From Candidatus Saccharimonadota bacterium (GTDB taxonomy: Archaea; Nanobdellota; Nanobdellia; Pacearchaeales; GW2011-AR1): a DNA stretch of 32,000 nucleotides. The translations under genes and the position numbers were made by a program. A model generated the notes under the pieces. That model saw nothing but the letters and a program-made list of their open reading frames with translations, searched no databases and was not told the origin of the DNA. Positions 16,887 to 31,847 of this stretch are shown one piece after another (within the stretch, counting starts at the first letter, position 1; each line of letters begins with the position of its first letter). The DNA lies in the NCBI GenBank assembly GCA_041659445.1, contig JBAZYG010000001.1, positions 150,001 to 182,000 on the forward strand, in the 5' to 3' direction.

Positions 16887-17771
16887 ATGGAAAGAATTGA
16901 TTTTAGAGATCAAATTTCAAAGAACAAAACAAAATCATTTTTCTTGATGTTTTCTATATTTGCAATAATAATTATTTTGGGTTATGTAATTTCATTGGCT
17001 TTTGATCCGTTGTATTTTAGTTTTGTCATGATTATAGCAACTATTTTTTCCATAAGTTATCTTTTGATTATGTATTATAATTCAGACAAAATTGCGATTT
17101 CAAGTGTTGGGGCAAAACTTGCAGATAGGAGTAAATACAAAGATTATTATTCTTTAGTTGAAGGATTAACTCTTGCTTCTGGTTTGCCGATGCCAAAACT
17201 TTATGTAATGTCATCAAAGCAAATTAATGCGTTTGCTTCTGGACGAAACCCCAATCATGCTGTTGTGTGTGTCACAGAAGGTGCTTTGGAAAAATTAGAA
17301 AAGAAAGAACTAGAAGGGGTTTTGGCTCATGAGTTGAGTCATATTGCAAGTTTTGATATTCGATACATGACATTGGTTGCAGTGATGGTTGGAATTATTT
17401 CAATTATTTCTCAAATTTTTTTAAGAAGTTTGTGGTTTAGGGGCGGAGGAGATGATAACGGCAAAGCTCAAATTATTTTTATCTTGATTGGAATTGTCTT
17501 GGCTATTTTAGCTCCTATTGTTGTTTATTTTGTCCAGATGTCTATTTCAAGAAAAAGAGAATACAGTGCAGATGCAATGGCTGTTAAATTTACTAGGTAT
17601 CCAAATGGCTTGATTGGTGCTTTGAAAAAAATAAAATCAGATAATTCTGTGCCTAGTGAAAGAAAAGTTTCAAAAGCTTTAGCACCTTTGTTTATTTCAA
17701 GTCCTTTTAAAAATCTAGCAAGTTCTCATCCTCCAATTGATGAAAGAATAAAAACATTAGAGAGAATGTAA
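16887..17771 (+). CDS. htpX: HtpX-type M48 zinc metalloprotease
   Basis: 294-aa ORF with two N-terminal TM helices, the zinc motif HELSHI, further TM helices, EYSADAMA and a C-terminal SHPPIDERI. Confidence 0.9.
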   Translation: MERIDFRDQISKNKTKSFFLMFSIFAIIIILGYVISLAFDPLYFSFVMIIATIFSISYLLIMYYNSDKIAISSVGAKLADRSKYKDYYSLVEGLTLASGLPMPKLYVMSSKQINAFASGRNPNHAVVCVTEGALEKLEKKELEGVLAHELSHIASFDIRYMTLVAVMVGIISIISQIFLRSLWFRGGGDDNGKAQIIFILIGIVLAILAPIVVYFVQMSISRKREYSADAMAVKFTRYPNGLIGALKKIKSDNSVPSERKVSKALAPLFISSPFKNLASSHPPIDERIKTLERM

Positions 17772-20501: not shown

Positions 20502-21053
20502 ATGTGTAAAAATTGTGAATTAAAACCTGTTTATGAATTTACTAACAAAAGAAAATTATGTAAACAATGTTTTATAAATTGGTTTCAAAAAAAATTTCTT
20601 TATACAATAAGAAAATTTTCAATGATAAATAAAGAAGAGGTTATTGCGTATGAAAATTCAGGAAATTTTAGAGATGTTGTTTTAGAAGATTTATTAAAAA
20701 TATTTTCAGAAAAGTCAAGAATAAGTTTAATTAAACTTCCTTCAAAAAAGAAATTTACAAAAAAGGCAATTTCAGAAACAATAGATTCTAATTCAATTAA
20801 GATAATGCAGTTTATTACAGAAAATAAAATCTCTCAATTAAAGAATTTAAGTGCTTCTGATAAATCAATTATAAAACCATTGTATCTTTTTTTAGATTCA
20901 GAAGTTTTGCTTTATGCTAAATTAAAGAACTTGAAATTTGAAAAAATTGTCGAGAAGAAAACTAATTGGAGTTTTTTTATTGATGAATTAGAAATAAAGC
21001 ATCCTGAAATAAAAAGGGCAATTGTTAATAGTTATTTAGAATTATATAAGTAA
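20502..21053 (+). CDS. truncated TtuA/Ncs6-like protein: N-terminal CxxC-x14-CxxC zinc ribbon with a degenerate PP-loop
   Basis: 183-aa ORF. MCKNCELKPVYEFTNKRKLCKQCFINWFQKKFLYTIRKF resembles the TtuA/Ncs6 N-terminus. The position expected for SGGKDS reads ENSGNFRD. IIKPLYLFLDSEVLLYAKLKNL and DELEIKHPEIKRAIVNSYL resemble the conserved C-terminal TtuA segments. Confidence 0.5.
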   Translation: MCKNCELKPVYEFTNKRKLCKQCFINWFQKKFLYTIRKFSMINKEEVIAYENSGNFRDVVLEDLLKIFSEKSRISLIKLPSKKKFTKKAISETIDSNSIKIMQFITENKISQLKNLSASDKSIIKPLYLFLDSEVLLYAKLKNLKFEKIVEKKTNWSFFIDELEIKHPEIKRAIVNSYLELYK

Positions 21054-21547
21054 TTTTTATTTTTTTTATATTTCTTGTATGCAAAGAAAACAGCAATTCC
21101 AATAATGATTACTAATCCTATAACAATAACAGTTATATTCTTGAAATGCGTTGGGAAATTTTGAGATATTGAATTTTCTTTTTCAGAATTGGTATTATTT
21201 TCAGTTTTAATAGAACAACTTTGATTCTCAATAGGTTTTATATTTAAATCAGCATAACAATATGTTTTTTCCTTTGTGCAGTTTCTTATTTGTATTCCCT
21301 CTACACAAGAAGACCAAGGAGAACAACTCCAATTAGTTAAGCAACTGCTACTACCTCCTGTATTATCGCTACCTGTCTCTCCTATCACTTCGCCTGTTGG
21401 AGAGGTTGATGCAGAGTTATTCATAATAAAAGCTTCATCTTCTTGGTCAAAGAAAGTTGTATTAGCAGATACATTTTCTGTTACTGCTATTAATAAAAAT
21501 AAGATAATCAGAATAGAATTAAGTAAATTAAATTTAAATATTTGCAT
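21032..21547 (-). CDS. type I membrane protein with Cys-rich TSP1-like module
   Basis: I prefer the ATG at 21547, which gives a signal peptide (MQIFKFNLLNSILIILFLLIAVTENVSA), over the track start at 21637, which overlaps the upstream gene. The Cys module is CLTNWSCSPWSSCVEGIQIRNCTKEKTYC. The C-terminus has a TM helix (ITVIVIGLVIIIGIAVFFA) and a KKYKKNK tail. Confidence 0.6.
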   Translation of the reverse strand: MQIFKFNLLNSILIILFLLIAVTENVSANTTFFDQEDEAFIMNNSASTSPTGEVIGETGSDNTGGSSSCLTNWSCSPWSSCVEGIQIRNCTKEKTYCYADLNIKPIENQSCSIKTENNTNSEKENSISQNFPTHFKNITVIVIGLVIIIGIAVFFAYKKYKKNKNYLYNSK

Positions 21548-21557
21548 TTTATCATTA

Positions 21558-22982
21558 TTAGTTAACAGTATTTGTGTAATATGAACCAGTATAAGTGGTA
21601 ATATTTGCAACAGCAGTTTCTGATTCAAATTGAACAATTAAATTTTTTTGATTTGCATCCGCAAGAATCGTGCAAATAATTGTGTTAATAAATGGAACAT
21701 TCACATCAAGACTCATTGCGCTCTCTCCAGTATTAGCAGAATTTGTGCTCACCGCGATATTATCAATATTTTCTACAGTATCACCTGCTTGAGTCATAAA
21801 GTTACAGTTTCCAACAGGTCCTGCATCATTTATAATCACCCTATTTTGAACTGCTACTCCTGCTGTAGATGAACTTTGTGCCAGATAGACTTTAACAATA
21901 TTCATTTTACTCGGTGTTAATGCAATAGTGAATATAGTAGTATACTCTGCATTTGTAGCATTTAAATTATTTTCCAAATAAACAGGAGTAAGTTCACTTA
22001 CAGAAGAAATATCATTCCAATCATGGATAGTTGTTCCGTTCAAAGTATAATTAGATGCATTAACATTTCCAGAAGCATCAATATCTTGAACAAATAATTT
22101 AGTTATTCTGTTTATTGAACTTCCCAAGTAATTGAAAAATCCAGTATCATCTGCTGTTATATTTTCTTGTGAAAATATAGAACCCCTTGATTCAATATCA
22201 TCTTCTACTAACAAGTCAGCTCCAGTTGCGTCTGTATCACAATCAACATAATTATTTCCCTCGCATAAAGTAAAGTTCTCATTTACTAACTTGTTTGTTG
22301 CATTTCCAACTATTTGAAAACTTCTAGAAACAGTGGTTGCTCTTCCTGATAAATATGCACCGCTAATACACATTTGCATTGTTTCTGTATTTTCATCCCA
22401 AAAACATTCTTGCATCCCATAATCATTTGTTTCTGATATAATATCATGAATTAATGAATCTGCAAAAGAAGAAGGGAGTGTAGATGCAAGTTCTCTTGGA
22501 GCATTATATAAAGCAGATGTAATAGTTCCATCAGATTTAATGAAATTGATTTCATCTTGTAATTTTAAAGGACTTAAACCCTGTAATGTGCCGTGTAATA
22601 CTAAACTTCCTGTTGAAATTTCATCGGTATCTTTTCTTAAATAGTTCCAAACCACTAATCTTCTTCTTGGAGTTTGATCTGTTCCATCTATATTTATATT
22701 GAGATAATAATCTTTAGAAATATTATTGCAAGCAGAACCCACTCCTTCTTGCTCTATTTTCCACTCACCCCAATTGCCTGTTGTTAAATTAGTTATGTTT
22801 GAATAACAAGTATTTCCACCAGTTAAAGCATCATAAACACTAAAATTAAATTCATAAGTTCCTGTATTAAATGTTGTTCCAGTATAGTACTGCCCTTGCC
22901 AGACTAAAACATCTGATGCAGAAACAATGTTGATAATTAATATTAAAATGACACTTATTAAAACCAAAAATATTTTATTCAT
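21558..22982 (-). CDS. secreted lysine-poor, sequon-rich fibre/adhesin-like protein
   Basis: I prefer the ATG at 22982 (MNKIFLVLISVILILIINIVSA signal peptide), which is preceded by GGAGGGAG (22986-22993). The track start at 23054 would run through the wHTH gene. About 12 N-x-S/T sequons are present. The composition is G/T/S/N/A-rich, unlike the rest of the window. Confidence 0.65.
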   Translation of the reverse strand: MNKIFLVLISVILILIINIVSASDVLVWQGQYYTGTTFNTGTYEFNFSVYDALTGGNTCYSNITNLTTGNWGEWKIEQEGVGSACNNISKDYYLNINIDGTDQTPRRRLVVWNYLRKDTDEISTGSLVLHGTLQGLSPLKLQDEINFIKSDGTITSALYNAPRELASTLPSSFADSLIHDIISETNDYGMQECFWDENTETMQMCISGAYLSGRATTVSRSFQIVGNATNKLVNENFTLCEGNNYVDCDTDATGADLLVEDDIESRGSIFSQENITADDTGFFNYLGSSINRITKLFVQDIDASGNVNASNYTLNGTTIHDWNDISSVSELTPVYLENNLNATNAEYTTIFTIALTPSKMNIVKVYLAQSSSTAGVAVQNRVIINDAGPVGNCNFMTQAGDTVENIDNIAVSTNSANTGESAMSLDVNVPFINTIICTILADANQKNLIVQFESETAVANITTYTGSYYTNTVN

Positions 22983-23205
22983 TTTCTCCCTCCTTTTTAG
23001 TCCAAAAATAAATTTTAGCCATGCCAGTTTGTCTTGTTTTGACCTTTTTTGCACCTTCTAAAAATGAAAAATAATTAGTTACAGTTTGTCTAGAAACACC
23101 AAGTTTTGTCGACAATTCAGAAACAGTAAATCCTTTTGAATTTAATTTTAATTCTTTTATAATCTTTTCTCGATTGTGATTAATGTCTTCTCTTTTTTTC
23201 TTCAT
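22975..23205 (-). CDS. small winged-helix DNA-binding protein
   Basis: 76-aa ORF with an HTH segment (FTVSELSTKLGVSRQTVTNYFSFLEGAKKV) followed by a wing-like segment (KTRQTGMAKIYFW). Its stop overlaps the downstream start by 8 nt (ATGAATAA). Confidence 0.7.
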   Translation of the reverse strand: MKKKREDINHNREKIIKELKLNSKGFTVSELSTKLGVSRQTVTNYFSFLEGAKKVKTRQTGMAKIYFWTKKEGENE

Positions 23206-23360: not shown

Positions 23361-23711
23361 TTATTCTTCTTTTTCTATATCTTCATTCTTAAGGAAAAAG
23401 TTATTAATTTCATTTAAATGATCAAGAACTTTTTTCAGTTGTGGATTTTTATTTACAAAATCTTTAGTTATAACAGTTTCATCCATTACTGCGAGGTAAA
23501 TTCTAGCTAAAAAATTTATTTGACTGTCATAAGAAACCCCTCTCCCTCTTTTACTTCTTATTAAATTTATTATGTCAAAAGAACCACTTTTCATAGCTTG
23601 ATCTACTTTTTTTCTTGCTACTTCATCAAGAAGTTTAATAGTTCCCTGTTTCAAAGATACGCTTATTTTTTCTTCTTGTTTATCTTCAGGTGTTTCATTT
23701 GGATAGTTCAT
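23361..23711 (-). CDS. hypothetical protein with possible N-terminal ribbon-helix-helix
   Basis: 116-aa ORF. The segment KISVSLKQGTIKLLDEVARKKV has the beta-strand plus helix look of CopG/RHH proteins. The rest is helical. Confidence 0.42.
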   Translation of the reverse strand: MNYPNETPEDKQEEKISVSLKQGTIKLLDEVARKKVDQAMKSGSFDIINLIRSKRGRGVSYDSQINFLARIYLAVMDETVITKDFVNKNPQLKKVLDHLNEINNFFLKNEDIEKEE

Positions 23712-23883: not shown

Positions 23884-25905
23884 TTATTGTTGCTGTTGTC
23901 TTTTATCTCTTTCCATTCTTTCCATGAATCCTTTTAGAAATGTTGAATTATCTCCAGACTTTCTAACTATTTCTTTTATTCTATTTGCAGAAGAATTTCC
24001 TAGTTGAACTCTTTCAGTTCTTATTGCTGAAGCTAATTTGTCCTTCATTGCATCACTTAAGTAAATTTCTTTATCAGCATAATTTGACATTTTTTTCAAG
24101 TTTGTCAAAGTATTTGTTATTGGCATGAACTTTATGGAATCTTTTTCAGGTTTTATTACTAAATCTCCTATGTCTATTGCAACTCCGTAATTCACTTTTT
24201 GTTTGAATAATTTATTATGGTTTTTTAATACATCATCAAATTCTCTTGCAATTTCTAGGGCTGTGTTTTCGTTTTGAAATGTTTTTGTTTTGAATGGAGC
24301 AAGTATAACAAATAAGTTATCTCTTGTTTGATAAATTAATCCTTTTCTACTTTCACCAATGCTTGTTAATTTTTGAAGAGTTTCTTTTAATCCTCCTGAA
24401 ATTAAATCAGTATAACCTTTTAAGTTAACAGAAACAATTGTAGCTTGTTGTTTTTGTCCTGTTATTGATAAAGATAATTCTGCTGTGGATGCAGTTGATG
24501 TCAAACTTCCTTTTTTAATTGGTTGGTCTGTTTGTATGTCTGGATGAAGTTCAGAAATATTTCTTACTTGAACTGTTGAAGGATATTTTCTTGCTCTTCC
24601 ATATGAAGGTTGTTTATGCACTCTTTTAATTAAGATTACTGAAACTGCTATTAAAACTAAAAGAACAAAACCCCAGATAAATGGATTTAATGAGAAGATA
24701 TTTTCAGAAAAATCTTTAACACTTACTGATTTTCCAGTCAAGCTTACTGTTTGAGAATGATCGCCTATTTGAACTACGTATTCTCCGTTTGGAGCTGTTA
24801 ATTTAAATTTTTTAGATTCTGAAACTCCTAAATTTACTTCAAGGTTTAATGGTTGTTCACCAATTTTTATCTCGACAATTTCGTTATAAGGAACATTACC
24901 AACATTTGTTAATATTAAAGTATTATTTAATATTTCAGATTTGATTTCTTTTTTTTCTTTTATGTCAAAAGTTTTTACATTTGTCAATTCATTATAATAT
25001 GCAGAAATTTTCCAAGATGCAGGGGGCTGTGTTTGATTTATTGCATATTCAAATTCCTCATTTGATTGAAGTTCTAATTTTTTAATTATAGTGTCTTCAT
25101 TATTTTTTATAGAAGCATAAACAGTTGTTGGAATATTCTCTCCTGTTTGATCATGCAAAGTTATTTTTCCTTTAAGATTTTCTCCAGGATTTATTGAGAA
25201 AGATTGAAGAGTAATTTCTAAACTTGTTGGAACTTGTTTTACTTTTATTGTTGTTGCTGTTGTCCCGTTATTTAATATTTGTCCTTCTGAATTTTTTTCA
25301 TAAACGTATAAATAAATTGAATGTTCTCCTGCTTTTAAATTTCCAGGAATTGTAATTTGAATTGAAAATTCTCCGTTATTCACAGCATTTGAATAAATTG
25401 GGTTTTGTGATAAATTTGTTAAAAGTTTTGCTTCAATTGTTCCTGAAGAAAATTCTCCATTTTGTTTTGTTGCAGTTCCTATGATAAAAATTGTTTCTCC
25501 TGGGGAAACCTCGTTTGTTATTTCATTAAGAGACAAAATTATTTTATTTGAAATTAAAAAGTTTGAACTCAAATCTCCTGCTTGTTCTCCTAGTTTATAA
25601 TAAATTAAACAATTTCCCAATGATTTTCCGATGAATTCATTAACTAAAGGAATAGAAATGTCTCGAAATTTTTCACCATCTTGCATAAAAATAGATTCTT
25701 TGTATATTTCTGTTTCGATTGTTCCGCATTTTAATATAACACTTAATGAATCACTTATAGGTGTTTCTGCTGTTATTTTTATTGGAACATTTAATGTGTC
25801 ACCTAAATTATATATGCTTTGAGGAGTTTGTTCTAAAGTTATTGTTGCTGAAGCTAAAGAAATTGCGAATATTAGAAAAATTATAAATAATGCCTCTTTT
25901 CTCAT
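23884..25905 (-). CDS. receptor-like single-pass membrane protein: signal peptide, Ig-like beta-sandwich ectodomain repeats, TM helix, cytoplasmic cyclase/palm-like domain
   Basis: 673-aa ORF. The signal peptide is MRKEALFIIFLIFAISLASA. The ectodomain is about 390 aa, beta-rich and repetitive. The TM helix is FIWGFVLLVLIAVSVILI, followed by KRVHKQ. The cytoplasmic segment ATIVSVNLKGYTDL...RDNLFVILAP...YGVAIDIGDLVI...ITNTLTNLKKMSNYADKEIYLSDAMKDKL follows the class III cyclase topology. Confidence 0.68.
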   Translation of the reverse strand: MRKEALFIIFLIFAISLASATITLEQTPQSIYNLGDTLNVPIKITAETPISDSLSVILKCGTIETEIYKESIFMQDGEKFRDISIPLVNEFIGKSLGNCLIYYKLGEQAGDLSSNFLISNKIILSLNEITNEVSPGETIFIIGTATKQNGEFSSGTIEAKLLTNLSQNPIYSNAVNNGEFSIQITIPGNLKAGEHSIYLYVYEKNSEGQILNNGTTATTIKVKQVPTSLEITLQSFSINPGENLKGKITLHDQTGENIPTTVYASIKNNEDTIIKKLELQSNEEFEYAINQTQPPASWKISAYYNELTNVKTFDIKEKKEIKSEILNNTLILTNVGNVPYNEIVEIKIGEQPLNLEVNLGVSESKKFKLTAPNGEYVVQIGDHSQTVSLTGKSVSVKDFSENIFSLNPFIWGFVLLVLIAVSVILIKRVHKQPSYGRARKYPSTVQVRNISELHPDIQTDQPIKKGSLTSTASTAELSLSITGQKQQATIVSVNLKGYTDLISGGLKETLQKLTSIGESRKGLIYQTRDNLFVILAPFKTKTFQNENTALEIAREFDDVLKNHNKLFKQKVNYGVAIDIGDLVIKPEKDSIKFMPITNTLTNLKKMSNYADKEIYLSDAMKDKLASAIRTERVQLGNSSANRIKEIVRKSGDNSTFLKGFMERMERDKRQQQQ

Positions 25906-25968: not shown

Positions 25969-26358
25969 TTAATTAAGTTGTTGCTCTATATTTTTACATA
26001 TTTTTTTATTATTAAATGAAACTAATGCAAATATTTTTGGAGTTGTTTTATAAAATAAAATGCATCTTTTTTCGTCTCCTATTACAGCATACATATTGCC
26101 AAATTCAGAGTTATTTATTGCATTTAAGGTAATATTCGTTTCTTTTTTTCCAATCAATTTAAGGATGTTTTCTTCTATTGATGTTATTCCTGTTTTTGAA
26201 TAAAAGATTTTTAAGTTATCAGATTTTTCAAATATTTTAATTAAAGGAATTTTAAAGGATTTTTCATCGGCAAGAAATTTAAATCCATCATCCTTTTCTA
26301 TTAAGTGTTCTAATGCTTTTTGATATTCCTTATCTGTCATTTCCATATTTTTATTCAT
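25969..26358 (-). CDS. hypothetical protein, tandem paralog A
   Basis: The start is ambiguous (26394, 26358 or 26346). I chose 26358 to avoid overlapping paralog B. The C-terminus (CILFYKTTPKIFALVSFNNKKICKNIEQQLN) parallels paralog B. Confidence 0.55.
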   Translation of the reverse strand: MNKNMEMTDKEYQKALEHLIEKDDGFKFLADEKSFKIPLIKIFEKSDNLKIFYSKTGITSIEENILKLIGKKETNITLNAINNSEFGNMYAVIGDEKRCILFYKTTPKIFALVSFNNKKICKNIEQQLN

Positions 26359-26374
26359 TTTATTTGGAGATTTT

Positions 26375-26788
26375 TTAATTAAGATTATTTTCAAGATTTT
26401 TACATAATTCTTTGTTGTTAAAGCAGATTAATGCAACTGGTTTTCTTTTAGGATTTTTTTCATAAACTTTTATTCCATAATAGAGAATATATCTTTTTTT
26501 ATCCCCCCTAAGACATATATAATCGGGGCTATCTATTTCTTTTATAGTGACATCCTCTTTATTTCTTTTTTCTAATTTTTTAATAATTTTATTTTTTATT
26601 TCTTCCCATTGCTCAGTCATTCTTTCTTTGGGGTAAACAAATTCTAAATTTCTAGAGAGGTTTATCATTTTTTCTATAGTGTAATTTAATTCTGAAGGTT
26701 TATTATGTAAATATTGAAGGGGATCATCATGAGAAATTAAATTTTCTACAAGGAATTGATATTTTTTTCTCACTCTATCTTTTGTCAT
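26375..26788 (-). CDS. hypothetical protein, tandem paralog B
   Basis: 137-aa ORF. KKYQFLVENLISHDDPLQYL and YILYYGIKVYEKNPKRKPVALICFNNKELCKNLENNLN align with KEYQKALEHLIEKDDGFKFL and the C-terminus of paralog A. Confidence 0.58.
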   Translation of the reverse strand: MTKDRVRKKYQFLVENLISHDDPLQYLHNKPSELNYTIEKMINLSRNLEFVYPKERMTEQWEEIKNKIIKKLEKRNKEDVTIKEIDSPDYICLRGDKKRYILYYGIKVYEKNPKRKPVALICFNNKELCKNLENNLN

Positions 26789-26878: not shown

Positions 26879-28006
26879 ATGGTTAAAAAAAAGAGTGTGG
26901 TTAACCCTTATAGTGTTTCTGGTGAAGTTAATTATGAGAAGTTAATTAAAGAGTTTGGAGTTTCAAAAATTGATTCTAAATTATTAGATAGAATTCAAGC
27001 AATTACAAAAGATTTGCATTTTATGCTTAGAAGAGGAGTTTTTTTTGCTCATAGAGATTTGAATTGGATTTTAGACGAATACAAAAAAGGAAACAAATTT
27101 TTTTTATATACTGGAAGAGCTCCTTCTGGTAAAATACATTTGGGACATTTAATGCCTTGGGTTTTTGTAAAATGGCTTCAAGATAGGTTTGATGTTGAAT
27201 TATGGTTTCATTTTCCAGACGAAGAAAAGTTTTTGTTTAAGGGTGATTTGAATTTTGATGAAGTTCAAAAAACTTTGAAAGATAACATGTTAGATGTTAT
27301 TGCCTTGGGTTTTGATCCAAAAAAAACACATTTTATCGTCGATACTCTTCATGCAGGAGTTATGTACAAAGAAGCTTGCAAAGTTGCTAAGAAAATTACA
27401 TTCAGTACAATTAAGGCTAGTTTTGGTTTTAATGATCAATCAAATATTGGTTCTATTTTTTATACAAGTATGCAAACAGTTCCAAGTTTTTTACCATCTG
27501 TTTTAAAAAATAAACAAATTCCGTGTTTAATTCCTCATGGTATTGACCAAGATCCACATTTTAGAATTGCCAGAGACGTGTTACCTAAACTAGGACATTT
27601 AAAACCAGCGTCTATTCAATGCAAATTTCTTCCTGCTTTACAAGGTCCTTCAAGTAAAATGTCGTCGAGTGCAGAAGCAAGTGCAATTTATACTACTGAT
27701 GATGCAAAAACTGTTGCAAATAAAATAAATAAGTATGCTTTTTCAGGAGGAGGAGCAACTTTAGTAGAGCATAAAAAAAATGGTGGAAATCCTGAGGTTG
27801 ATGTTTCTTTCCAATATTTAAAAATGTTTTTTGAATCTGACGATAAAAGACTTGAAAAGATTAAAGCAATGTATGAATCTGGAGACTTATCAACAGGTGA
27901 ATTAAAAAAAATTTTAATTGATAAAATAAATGCTTTTTTAAAAGAACATCAAAAAAAGAGAAAAGAAGCAGAAAATAAAATTAATGATTTTTTATATAAA
28001 TTTTAA
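26879..28006 (+). CDS. trpS: tryptophan--tRNA ligase, archaeal/eukaryal type
   Basis: 375-aa ORF with class I motifs: a HIGH-type motif (TGRAPSGKIHLGHLMPW) and a KMSKS-type motif (KMSSS). It has the overall archaeal/eukaryal TrpRS layout. Confidence 0.9.
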   Translation: MVKKKSVVNPYSVSGEVNYEKLIKEFGVSKIDSKLLDRIQAITKDLHFMLRRGVFFAHRDLNWILDEYKKGNKFFLYTGRAPSGKIHLGHLMPWVFVKWLQDRFDVELWFHFPDEEKFLFKGDLNFDEVQKTLKDNMLDVIALGFDPKKTHFIVDTLHAGVMYKEACKVAKKITFSTIKASFGFNDQSNIGSIFYTSMQTVPSFLPSVLKNKQIPCLIPHGIDQDPHFRIARDVLPKLGHLKPASIQCKFLPALQGPSSKMSSSAEASAIYTTDDAKTVANKINKYAFSGGGATLVEHKKNGGNPEVDVSFQYLKMFFESDDKRLEKIKAMYESGDLSTGELKKILIDKINAFLKEHQKKRKEAENKINDFLYKF

Positions 28007-30137: not shown

Positions 30138-31847
30138 ATGAAAACATTATACCTTCATGTAGATTATATTGAATTTGAGCCTTTAAAAAAAGCACTAAAA
30201 GATGTTGAAAAACTTGGAGAGCAAGATATTTCTAAAAAAAGAATAGAAGAAGCTTTAGTGATTTTAGTAGCAATTGAAAATGGAGATTCTGTTTCAGATA
30301 AATTTCTTGGAGAATTTGTCAACAATACATTGTCTATTTCTGAACAAGTTAAAACAAAAAAAATTGTTCTTTATCCTTATGCTCATCTTTCAAGAAATTT
30401 GGGGAATCCGTCTATTGCAATGGAAATTTTTAAAACATTAGAGACTAGACTTAAAAAAGAAAAATTAAATGTTACAAGAGCTCCATTTGGATATTACAAA
30501 GCTTTTGAATTAAAGGTTAAGGGACATCCTTTGAGTGAATTGTCGAGGGAAATTATTTTAGGAGATGAATCTAAAGAAATTGAAGAAAAATATGATTCTA
30601 AGCAGTTGCTTAGGGAAATTTCAAAATCAAAATTAGATACAACAAAACTCAAAGAAAATGATCATCGAATTTTGGGACAACAAATGGATTTATTCAGTTT
30701 TTCTGAAATTGCACCAGGAATGGTTTTTTGGCATAATAATGGTTTAATTATAAGAAATGAATTAATTAATTTTTGGAGGGAAGAACATAGAAAAGCAGGG
30801 TATAAAGAAATTTTAACTCCTCAAATTATGGATAAAAAGCTATGGCAAATTTCAGGACATTGGGAAAAATATCGAGAGAATAATTTTTCTACAGAATATG
30901 AAAAAAGAAAATTTATGATTAAACCCATGAATTGTCCTGGTGGAATGCTTGTTTTTAAAAGCAAACCAAAAAGTTATAGAGATTTACCGTTGAGAATGGG
31001 TGAACTAGGGGTTGTTCATAGAGTTGAACTTTCAGGTGTTTTAGCTGGTTTGTTTAGAGTTATTCAATTTACACAAGATGATGCACATATTTATTGCACT
31101 GAAGAGCAAATTAACGACGAGGTAATGTCTATTGTTGATTTAATTAAGTTTTTTTACTCAAAATTTAATCTTCCTTTTCATATTGAATTTTCAACAAGAC
31201 CTGAGAAAAGAATAGGAACAGAAAAAGAATGGGATAAAGCTGAAAAACTTTTAGAAGATGTTTTGAAAAAAAATAAATTAAAATATAAAATCAACAAAGG
31301 AGATGGTGCGTTTTACGGGCCTAAAATTGATTTTCATGTTACTGATTCTTTGGGAAGAACATGGCAAACAGCGACGATTCAATTGGATTTACTTCTTCCA
31401 GAAAGATTTGATATAGAATATACTGATAAAGATAATGTTAAAAAAAGGCCAATTATTTTGCATAGAACAATTTATGGAAGTTTAGAAAGATTTTTGGGAA
31501 TTTTGTTAGAACATTTTAATGGAAGATTGCCTGTTTGGCTTTGTCCAGTTCAAGTAAGGGTGTTGAGTTTTACAGATAGAAATATCAAATACAGCGAGAA
31601 GGTTGTTGAAAATTTAAGAAAAGAAATTCCAAATTTAAGAATTGATTTTGATTTTAATCAAACAACTGTTCCTGCAAAAGTCAAAGAAGCAGAATTAATG
31701 AAAGTTCCGTATATAATTGTTGTAGGAGATAAAGAAGAAAAAGAAAATACTCTTGCAGTCCGTGTCAAAGGAAGTAATAAAATTGAAGTTTTTAAGTTAA
31801 ATGATTTTGTTAAAAAATTAAAAAAAGAGATTGAGGATAGAGGGTAA
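30138..31847 (+). CDS. thrS: threonine--tRNA ligase, archaeal type with N-terminal archaea-specific editing domain
   Basis: 569-aa ORF. The N-terminus (MKTLYLHVDYIEFEPLKKA) matches the archaeal ThrRS editing-domain start. The class II core has a zinc-site motif (MNCPGG), motif 2 (FRVIQFTQDDAHIY) and motif 3 (HRTIYGSLERFLGILLEH). A C-terminal anticodon-binding domain follows. Confidence 0.93.
   Translation: MKTLYLHVDYIEFEPLKKALKDVEKLGEQDISKKRIEEALVILVAIENGDSVSDKFLGEFVNNTLSISEQVKTKKIVLYPYAHLSRNLGNPSIAMEIFKTLETRLKKEKLNVTRAPFGYYKAFELKVKGHPLSELSREIILGDESKEIEEKYDSKQLLREISKSKLDTTKLKENDHRILGQQMDLFSFSEIAPGMVFWHNNGLIIRNELINFWREEHRKAGYKEILTPQIMDKKLWQISGHWEKYRENNFSTEYEKRKFMIKPMNCPGGMLVFKSKPKSYRDLPLRMGELGVVHRVELSGVLAGLFRVIQFTQDDAHIYCTEEQINDEVMSIVDLIKFFYSKFNLPFHIEFSTRPEKRIGTEKEWDKAEKLLEDVLKKNKLKYKINKGDGAFYGPKIDFHVTDSLGRTWQTATIQLDLLLPERFDIEYTDKDNVKKRPIILHRTIYGSLERFLGILLEHFNGRLPVWLCPVQVRVLSFTDRNIKYSEKVVENLRKEIPNLRIDFDFNQTTVPAKVKEAELMKVPYIIVVGDKEEKENTLAVRVKGSNKIEVFKLNDFVKKLKKEIEDRG

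Follow-up and report, generated by a model that had tools for sequence, protein, structure and literature searches.

The gene on the minus strand at positions 23884-25905 of our window, a stretch of 32,000 nucleotides, encodes a type I single-pass membrane protein of 673 amino acids (P0001) from a Pacearchaeota-type DPANN archaeon. It is best explained, and we think with good likelihood, as a surface stalk of macroglobulin (MG) domains joined to a cytoplasmic pseudoenzyme that derives from the cyclase-homology domain (CHD) of class III nucleotidyl cyclases, the whole being a core gene of one DPANN family. In DPANN archaea, whose genomes are tiny, hardly any genes for signal transduction can be recognised; a single-copy membrane protein kept in about 98% of a family's genomes is a candidate core envelope or signalling component, and bears on how these archaea sense or hold hosts and surfaces. 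The family would also offer a clean natural case of conversion from enzyme to pseudoenzyme in the class III cyclase superfamily, with intermediate forms that survive to this day (f74 members) and with no active partner in most of the host genomes.

Translation and an AlphaFold model bear out the topology proposed in a preliminary description of this DNA, namely a signal peptide, beta-sandwich repeats, one transmembrane (TM) helix and a cytoplasmic tail, in an open reading frame with exactly the coordinates given there. All features lie on the minus strand. The signal peptide (residues 1-20, MRKEALFIIFLIFAISLASA; 25846..25905) is an N-terminal helix in the model, then the conserved pair S19-A20. 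The extracellular region (24706..25845) consists of four MG-type beta-sandwich domains and covers about 380 amino acids, close to the 390 or so first estimated. The single TM helix (residues 408-429; 24619..24684), placed earlier at about 24624-24683, is helical in the model and forms a hydrophobic stretch, then KRVHKQPSYGRARK; the positive-inside rule is satisfied, the next 20 residues including five Lys/Arg and no Asp/Glu. The cytoplasmic tail measures 244 amino acids, as against the 245 or so expected, and comprises a juxtamembrane linker, disordered and rich in Lys/Arg (residues 430-470; 24496..24618), a degenerate class III CHD of 177 amino acids (residues 471-647; 23965..24495) and a conserved C-terminal amphipathic helix (residues 654-672; 23890..23946), which is present in both models and contains the residues F656, F660 and R663, near-invariant in the family alignment. 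The stop codon is at 23884..23886.

The repeats had been called 'Ig-like': they are indeed beta-sandwiches, and Foldseek and Pfam MG2 identify their precise type as MG domains. Their borders in the AlphaFold model are approximately residues 21-119, 120-223, 224-316 and 317-400, with a pLDDT of 85-95 across the four domains. In the PDB, the ectodomain matches CD109, complement C3/C4/C5 and alpha-2-macroglobulins (Foldseek E 3e-13 to 1e-11, 430-500 columns). Pfam MG2 gives a weak score of 22 bits on the protein itself, under the cut-off of 32.8, and up to 38.5 bits in homologs. The motifs LHDQTGE and NxGNVxYN are invariant in the family, as are the sole two cysteines, C60 and C99, both in MG1. 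The MG-type sandwich fold is common to the alpha-2-macroglobulin/complement C3/CD109 family, including a bacterial alpha-2-macroglobulin (ECAM, 4ziq/5a42), but here the MG domains number only four, and a C-terminal TM helix anchors them in the membrane. The protein, whose ectodomain stops at the TM helix after MG4, has no bait region, thioester domain, CUB or receptor-binding domain, and the thioester motif CGEQ is absent from its sequence. Since the ectodomain lacks these parts and is membrane-anchored, it is better described as an MG stalk than as a protease trap.

The claim that the tail tracks the class III CHD is upheld by fold and by profile-profile comparison. When the tail was searched directly against Pfam, NCBIfam and PDB sequences, nothing useful came back, nor did the PDB yield anything useful to a profile built from the full-length family alignment (A1); the homology surfaced only through profile-profile comparison, structure comparison and intermediates. 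The lack of any PF00211 match (Pfam search, E up to 10) or PDB sequence match for the protein would suit a resemblance owed to a generic palm or ferredoxin-like fold, such as that of GGDEF domains or polymerase palms, or to a chance motif match, an idea to which we assign practically no credence and which is refuted by the hhalign, Foldseek, decoy and intermediate-HMM results. The best 50 PDB matches of the tail model (pLDDT 85.8, pTM 0.79) are all catalytic domains of class III adenylyl or guanylyl cyclases (50/50; Foldseek E 5e-10 to 4e-8; about 175-200 columns, target TM 0.6-0.75), with no GGDEF domain or polymerase among them. The nearest solved structures are the RhGC guanylyl cyclase domain (6sir), Cya2 (2w01), CyaC (1wc0-1wc5), CyaB (3r5g), Rv1625c (7yzk/7yz9) and GC-A (9bcv). 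When 149 family tails were aligned with 33 genuine DPANN CHDs, hhalign returned a probability of 98.7% in global mode (E 2.9e-15, 162 columns) and 97.9% in local mode (E 5e-13), a similarity far above chance, 11 reversed or column-shuffled decoys giving at most 0.3%; this alignment takes in the CHD-specific C-terminal elements alpha4, beta6, alpha5 and beta7-beta8.

Intermediates lead to the same result. The syntenic ortholog in genome G085 scores 22.1 bits against PF00211, whose gathering score is 21.9 bits, and the same profile positions are matched at 17-33 bits by 32 more members of the family, 11 of them above the cut-off and 21 at 17-21 bits. An early-branching member (L073) reaches 81 bits against an HMM of genuine CHDs (E 1.7e-26), and E 3e-19 against single receptor-type cyclases. 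The GGDEF (PF00990) and CYTH readings were both discarded, with no Pfam signal (E up to 10) and no place among the best 50 fold matches; the motif GG[DE]EF does not occur in the protein's sequence.

Segment by segment, profile-profile alignment to genuine cyclase domains places ATIVSVNLKGYTDL at beta1 and the phosphate loop, YGVAIDIGDLVI at the xGxHxG strand and ITNTLTNLKK...EIYLSD at GDtVNlAsR...I.vSe, all as first proposed; the assignment of RDNLFVILAP to the GD strand is sound when the alignment is ungapped, and hhalign puts a two-residue gap there. The tail thus has in common with class III catalytic domains (PF00211) the order of secondary-structure elements, an xGxxxG strand, a helix G-x-x-x-x-x-A-K/R-K/R at GDtVNlAsR and I-L-l-S-E at I.vSe, as well as a sequence homology that can be demonstrated via profiles and intermediates. 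It differs from them in possessing its own near-invariant set (G483-x-K-Q, K496-N497, T540-K-T-F-x-N-E, H563-N564 and K604-K605) and an additional conserved C-terminal helix, and in that the protein itself remains under the Pfam threshold. Among genuine CHDs, those of DPANN membrane cyclases are nearest to it, and the cytoplasmic domain would have descended from a class III catalytic domain, most closely from those of DPANN membrane receptor-type cyclases. The logic of ectodomain, membrane and cytoplasmic CHD is common to receptor-type cyclases (GC-A, trypanosomatid receptor adenylyl cyclases and the DPANN TM-ectodomain-3TM-CHD proteins), which differ from the present protein with its single TM helix, four-MG ectodomain and CHD predicted to be catalytically dead. 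We considered whether the ancestor was a cyclase that already had this ectodomain and rejected the idea: the long genuine DPANN cyclases consist of a TM helix, about 250 amino acids, three TM helices and a CHD, with no MG similarity.

Catalytic residues are normally near-invariant in real enzymes, and the 33 genuine DPANN CHDs have, at the six canonical positions in turn, D (100%), K (100%), D (100%), T or D (55% and 45%), N (100%) and R (94%). The corresponding positions in the family are very different. That of the first metal Asp (494) is K in 56% and N in 13% of members and acidic in 1%; that of the substrate Lys (525) is Y in 89%; that of the second metal Asp (529) is D in 39%, E in 17% and G in 19%; that of the substrate Asp/Thr (594) is M in 62% and T in 23%; that of the transition-state Asn (601) is T in 41%, S in 18% and N in 11%; and that of the Arg (605) is K in 85% and R in 12%. 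Relative to class III cyclases, the family as a whole has replaced five of the six canonical residues for catalysis or substrate, and changed the sixth from Arg to Lys. The protein under study has N494, Y525, D529, M594, T601 and K605, so that the substitutions of the first Asp by Asn and of the Arg by Lys, noticed at the outset, are both real; the alignment of homologs at the catalytic Asp, Asn and Arg positions shows that the loss is family-wide and extends to residues not listed before (Y525, M594 and T601). Even the earliest branches are without the two Asps and the Asn. An 'active missing link' was sought among the most cyclase-like members (G427, G435, G277 and G184) and the out-of-family members (G163 and G168), all of which lack the first metal Asp. 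The two-metal catalytic apparatus would have been lost before the family diversified.

The domain is otherwise strongly conserved, with about 20 positions conserved at 85% or more among 149 representatives of 542 clusters. In this family, G483, K485, Q486, K496, N497, Y525, P537, T540, K/R541 and T542 are near-invariant, and so are N545, E546, H563, N564, K570, G574, G580, F593, K604 and K605. Some features do count against inactivity: D529 is kept in this protein, the change from Arg to Lys is conservative, and some acidic positions are moderately conserved (E526 at 62%, position 572 acidic in 64%, E546 acidic in 87%).

Conceivably, if improbably, non-canonical catalytic residues might let the tail work as a nucleotidyl cyclase or as some other nucleotidyl transferase, which would make the protein a receptor cyclase of unusual chemistry. 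The strong constraint, the invariant polar residues (T540, K/R541, N545, N564, K604/K605), the homology of K496/N497 in the beta1-alpha1 phosphate loop and of K605 at the Arg position to substrate-contacting positions, and the retention of D529 would all fit such an enzyme, and the RNA polymerase of N. equitans (PMC8204694) is a precedent of a nanoarchaeal enzyme that is active despite radical substitutions in a seemingly 'impossible' active site. Against this, the near-absence of an acidic residue at the first Asp position is not compensated within three positions (492-497: 0-5% acidic), the second Asp is kept by just 39% of members, conservation of acidic residues nowhere in the domain exceeds 87%, and genuine DPANN CHDs have their catalytic residues at 100%. 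Moreover, domain searches of the source genome found no cNMP-binding (receptor) domain, and no GGDEF domain either. Between the divergent enzyme and the pseudo-cyclase signalling module offered in the preliminary description, fold, profile-profile homology and family-wide loss of catalytic residues favour the second: in a receptor-type architecture, the tail is a catalytically degenerate CHD, probably a pseudo-cyclase module. Judging from sequence, it most likely makes no cyclic nucleotide.

The gene was present in 152 of the 155 sampled genomes of its GTDB family (f1), almost always in one copy, and is rare in the sister families; it is a core, single-copy gene of this one family. Outside f1 the tail occurs in part of f74, and there are sister families whose only homolog is an MG-TM protein with no tail. 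The f1 genomes that carry the tail measure 0.4-1.4 Mb, and the source genome 0.7 Mb. Class III cyclases had been described as uncommon in archaea, which does not hold here: of 151 genomes sampled from the phylum, 38 carry canonical PF00211 domains, and the source genome has one too. Class III catalytic sites form across a dimer interface, and the tail might accordingly be the regulatory, non-catalytic half of a heterodimeric cyclase whose partner is a competent CHD protein encoded elsewhere. A candidate partner exists: a canonical CHD, small and soluble and with the two metal Asps, the Lys, the Asp and the Asn all in place, is encoded in the source genome (G000:C1:369337-369885, 261 amino acids, 52 bits) and in a same-genus relative. 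In the source genome, however, some 195 kb separate the two genes, and of 151 f1 genomes sampled only about 15 have a strong canonical CHD, as against 152 of 155 for the dead-CHD protein. Because the phyletic distributions do not match, such pairing is ruled out as a general mechanism, and we hold a heterodimeric cyclase to be very unlikely. CHDs without catalytic residues are kept for binding or regulation in the mammalian adenylyl cyclase C1/C2 forskolin site and in soluble guanylyl cyclase alpha/beta, which have in common with the present family the loss of catalytic residues and the retention of the CHD. To our knowledge, those degenerate halves are always paired with an active half-site, whereas most genomes here have no active CHD at all, and the dead domain must therefore act alone or as a homodimer.

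How the two sides of the membrane might communicate is suggested by the linker. Residues 430-465 have a pLDDT below 50 and no helix in the model, and in 109 homologs the linker spans 14-100 amino acids (median 36), consists of Lys to 21% and shows little conservation. The model has neither a coiled coil nor a cyclase-transducer element between the membrane and the CHD. Real receptor-type cyclases have a rigid coiled coil or cyclase-transducer element at this place; with a linker that lacks order and differs in length from homolog to homolog, outside-in coupling, if any, would proceed by clustering or dimerisation rather than by a helix piston or rotation.

In the pseudoenzyme model, then, four MG-type domains would be displayed on the cell surface, and a flexible basic linker would tether the cytoplasmic domain to the membrane. 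Having lost its catalytic residues and yet being kept throughout nearly the whole family, the domain probably works by binding and not by making a messenger; the pseudoenzyme may bind a second copy of itself (dimerisation), a cytoplasmic partner or an anionic ligand. More speculatively, and we rather doubt it, the pocket at the dimer interface may have been kept and rebuilt as a metal-free site lined with Lys and Asn, binding a nucleotide, a cyclic nucleotide or a polyphosphate-like anion without turnover. The putative pocket would involve K496-N497 in the former phosphate loop, Y525 where the base was once recognised and K604-K605 in the former Asn/Arg helix. If so, what once generated a signal would now receive one, tethered to the membrane, and an MG stalk, possibly in contact with a host or surface, would be linked to the cytoplasmic nucleotide state in cells with almost no other signalling machinery.

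We found no description of this family in the literature on pseudo-cyclases or on DPANN or Pacearchaeota cyclases; publicly it is annotated as 'hypothetical protein', and the tail has no Pfam model. The position of the gene next to two DNA-binding genes had been called notable. These neighbours are an HTH gene (22975-23205), the only one of the two with Pfam HTH support, and an ORF of 116 amino acids (23361-23711), and they belong to a strain-specific insertion of six ORFs on both sides of the gene, absent even in two same-genus genomes. We rejected an operon or functional link with them because both ORFs, together with the four others, are missing from all 23 other loci compared. The locus itself lies in conserved housekeeping synteny (ThrRS, TrpRS).

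The ORF at 23884-25905 on the minus strand, in surroundings with a G+C content of 26-28%, encodes a 673-residue protein (P0001), for which an AlphaFold2 model built with 11 full-length homologs as input has a mean pLDDT of 80. It comprises an N-terminal signal peptide, four beta-sandwich domains (residues ~21-400, pLDDT 85-95) and a single transmembrane (TM) helix (408-429). Beyond this helix, residues 430-465 are disordered (pLDDT <50) and lead into a compact alpha/beta domain (~471-647), with one further helix (654-672) at the C-terminus. The first 20 residues following the TM helix contain five Lys or Arg and no Asp or Glu; the tail is therefore assigned to the cytoplasm. P0001 has only two cysteines, C60 and C99; both lie outside the cell and are invariant.

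Four independent lines of evidence establish the identity of this tail as a class III cyclase-homology domain (CHD). Sequence searches of Pfam, NCBIfam and the PDB with the P0001 tail alone returned no match, and a profile built from the full-length family alignment likewise found nothing in the PDB. First, with a tail-only model (pLDDT 85.8, pTM 0.79), the best 50 PDB matches found by Foldseek were all catalytic domains of class III adenylyl or guanylyl cyclases (E 5e-10 to 4e-8, target TM-score up to 0.75), among them RhGC, Cya2, CyaC, CyaB, Rv1625c, GC-A and mammalian AC. Second, a phmmer search of the whole library with the tail retrieved 542 representative clusters, nearly all of 650-700-aa proteins that carry the tail C-terminally, and 149 family tails from these clusters were aligned by hhalign with 33 canonical PF00211 domains of DPANN genomes (genuine CHDs); the two matched with a probability of 98.7% (E 2.9e-15) over 162 columns, that is, the whole domain, and with 97.9% in local mode, while 11 reversed or shuffled decoys reached at most 0.3%. 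Third, among 151 genomes surveyed from f1, the GTDB family of the source genome, 32 orthologous tails score 17-33 bits against the same region of PF00211, at coordinates coinciding with the tail matches, and the syntenic ortholog in genome G085 reaches 22.1 bits (cut-off 21.9 bits). The preliminary description, which saw in the tail a resemblance to a degenerate class III cyclase domain, was thus right, even though the Pfam signal lies in relatives and not in P0001 itself.

The fourth line comes from two members of the sister family f74, L073 (G168:C18:1-3000), which has only two macroglobulin-type domains, and L072 (G163:C6:167000-171500), both much nearer to real cyclases than the f1 tails. 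The L073 tail scores 81 bits (E 1.7e-26) against an HMM of the genuine CHDs, and E 3e-19 against individual receptor-type DPANN cyclases. Both f74 forms retain the substrate Lys, Thr and Arg, but the Asn and the two metal Asps are already gone. A maximum-likelihood tree unites all tails in a single clan (100/100), in keeping with a single origin. When the genuine CHDs are taken as outgroup, an assumed root, the pair from f74 splits off before a supported clade of f1 tails (100/98). They are evolutionary intermediates.

Catalytic positions were compared between the 33 genuine CHDs and the 149 family tails, which have mostly lost the canonical residues. The first metal Asp, present in 100% of genuine CHDs, is mostly Lys (56%) or Asn (13%) in the family and acidic in 1%; no acidic replacement is found within three positions of this column in the family tails (0-5% acidic), and the most cyclase-like f1 members also lack it. 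The substrate Lys (100%) is replaced by Tyr in 89% (Y525 in P0001), and the second metal Asp (100%) gives way to a mixture of Asp (39%), Glu (17%) and Gly (19%; D529). The substrate Asp/Thr position (Thr 55%, Asp 45%) is Met in 62% and Thr in 23% (M594), the transition-state Asn (100%) is Thr in 41%, Ser in 18% and Asn in 11% (T601), and the transition-state Arg (94%) is Lys in 85% and Arg in 12%. The substitutions of Asn for the first Asp and Lys for Arg proposed earlier for P0001 correspond to N494 and K605. From these patterns we infer that catalysis was lost throughout the family.

Judged by its sequences, the family CHD is nonetheless far from decaying. Some 20 positions are conserved at 85% or more (G483, K485, K496, N497, Y525, P537, T540, K/R541, T542, F543, N545, H563, N564, G574, G580, F593, G597, K604 and K605, with F656/F660 in the C-terminal helix), and Q486, E546, K570 and R663 at 79-83%. 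Several conserved residues align by hhalign with substrate-contacting positions, namely the beta1-alpha1 phosphate loop, the base-recognition position and the Asn/Arg helix, which leads us to hypothesize that a binding pocket may be retained in a catalytically degenerate CHD.

As for the ectodomain, Foldseek matches of the full P0001 model in the PDB are mostly to CD109, complement C3/C4/C5 and alpha-2-macroglobulins (A2M; E 3e-13 to 1e-11, 430-500 columns), and the Pfam MG2 match, weak in P0001 (22 bits), reaches 38.5 bits in homologs. The repeats are therefore macroglobulin-type (MG) domains: the beta-sandwich repeats described earlier stand, and MG is more precise than their Ig-like label. 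Unlike the A2M family, P0001 lacks a bait region, a thioester domain and every other element specific to A2M. Homologs with a four-MG ectodomain and TM helix are widespread in the class; those examined in other families (L037-L044) have no CHD and end instead in short, low-complexity, K/E-rich cytoplasmic tails.

The CHD-bearing tail is present in 152 of 155 sampled f1 genomes, nearly always in single copy, and in only 3 of 45 genomes from sister families of the same order. The homologs, labelled Nanoarchaeota or Candidatus Pacearchaeota, are publicly named 'hypothetical protein', and our literature search found no paper describing the family. Class III cyclases had been considered uncommon in archaea; canonical PF00211 proteins nevertheless occur in 38 of 151 sampled genomes across this phylum, where genuine receptor-type enzymes are common. 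The long ones (L002-L018, L046, L048, L049) uniformly have an N-terminal TM helix, a ~250-aa extracellular region without MG similarity, three TM helices and a CHD, whereas P0001 combines four MG domains, a single TM helix and a probably inactive CHD. Strong canonical proteins exist in only ~15 of 151 f1 genomes, so the family CHD has no regular active partner. The source genome (708 kb, 2 contigs, 92% complete) does encode, outside the window and ~195 kb from the P0001 gene, a soluble canonical cyclase of 261 aa (G000:C1:369337-369885; L001:1276-2061; PF00211, 52 bits) in which the two metal Asps, the substrate Lys and Asp and the transition-state Asn are all present and Lys stands in for the Arg. 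Searches of this genome found no cNMP-binding or GGDEF domain.

The best-supported reading is that P0001 is a pseudo-cyclase, acting as a non-catalytic binding module, and the family is predicted to consist of receptor-type class III cyclases that have become pseudoenzymes and bear an MG ectodomain. A caveat is that radical active-site changes can be tolerated by nanoarchaeal enzymes (PMC8204694). The module, borne by a core surface protein whose stalk is made of MG domains, could bind itself, a partner or an anionic ligand, and a flexible, Lys-rich linker of variable length (14-100 aa, median 36) would hold it beneath the membrane. The family has no rigid coiled-coil transducer between membrane and CHD, and for this reason coupling, if any, would proceed via clustering or dimerisation.

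In f1 the conserved gene order is ThrRS, TrpRS (divergent), the P0001 gene, a small putative TtuA-like protein, two unknowns and an HtpX-type M48 peptidase. In the window, the Trp-tRNA synthetase (26879-28006; class I W/Y, 102 bits), the archaeal-type Thr-tRNA synthetase with editing domain (30138-31847) and the peptidase (16887-17771) mark this conserved housekeeping neighbourhood. The putative TtuA-like protein (183 aa, 20502-21053; cluster c10) has no Pfam match and is a conserved syntenic neighbour in at least nine compared loci. Six extra ORFs flank the P0001 gene: a tandem pair of ~130-aa paralogs upstream (26375-26788 and 25969-26394) and, downstream, a 116-aa ORF (23361-23711), a 76-aa HTH_11 protein (22975-23205), a 498-aa secreted protein (21558-23054) and a 201-aa membrane protein (21032-21637). 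All six are missing from the corresponding position in the 23 other loci compared, two same-genus genomes included; the HTH protein and the others were therefore rejected as partners of P0001, and the significance once attached to two adjacent DNA-binding genes falls away. The six look like a strain-specific insertion, apparently two, and are possibly a mobile or viral remnant. The P0001 gene usually lies between genes of the opposite strand, in keeping with its being a transcription unit of its own.
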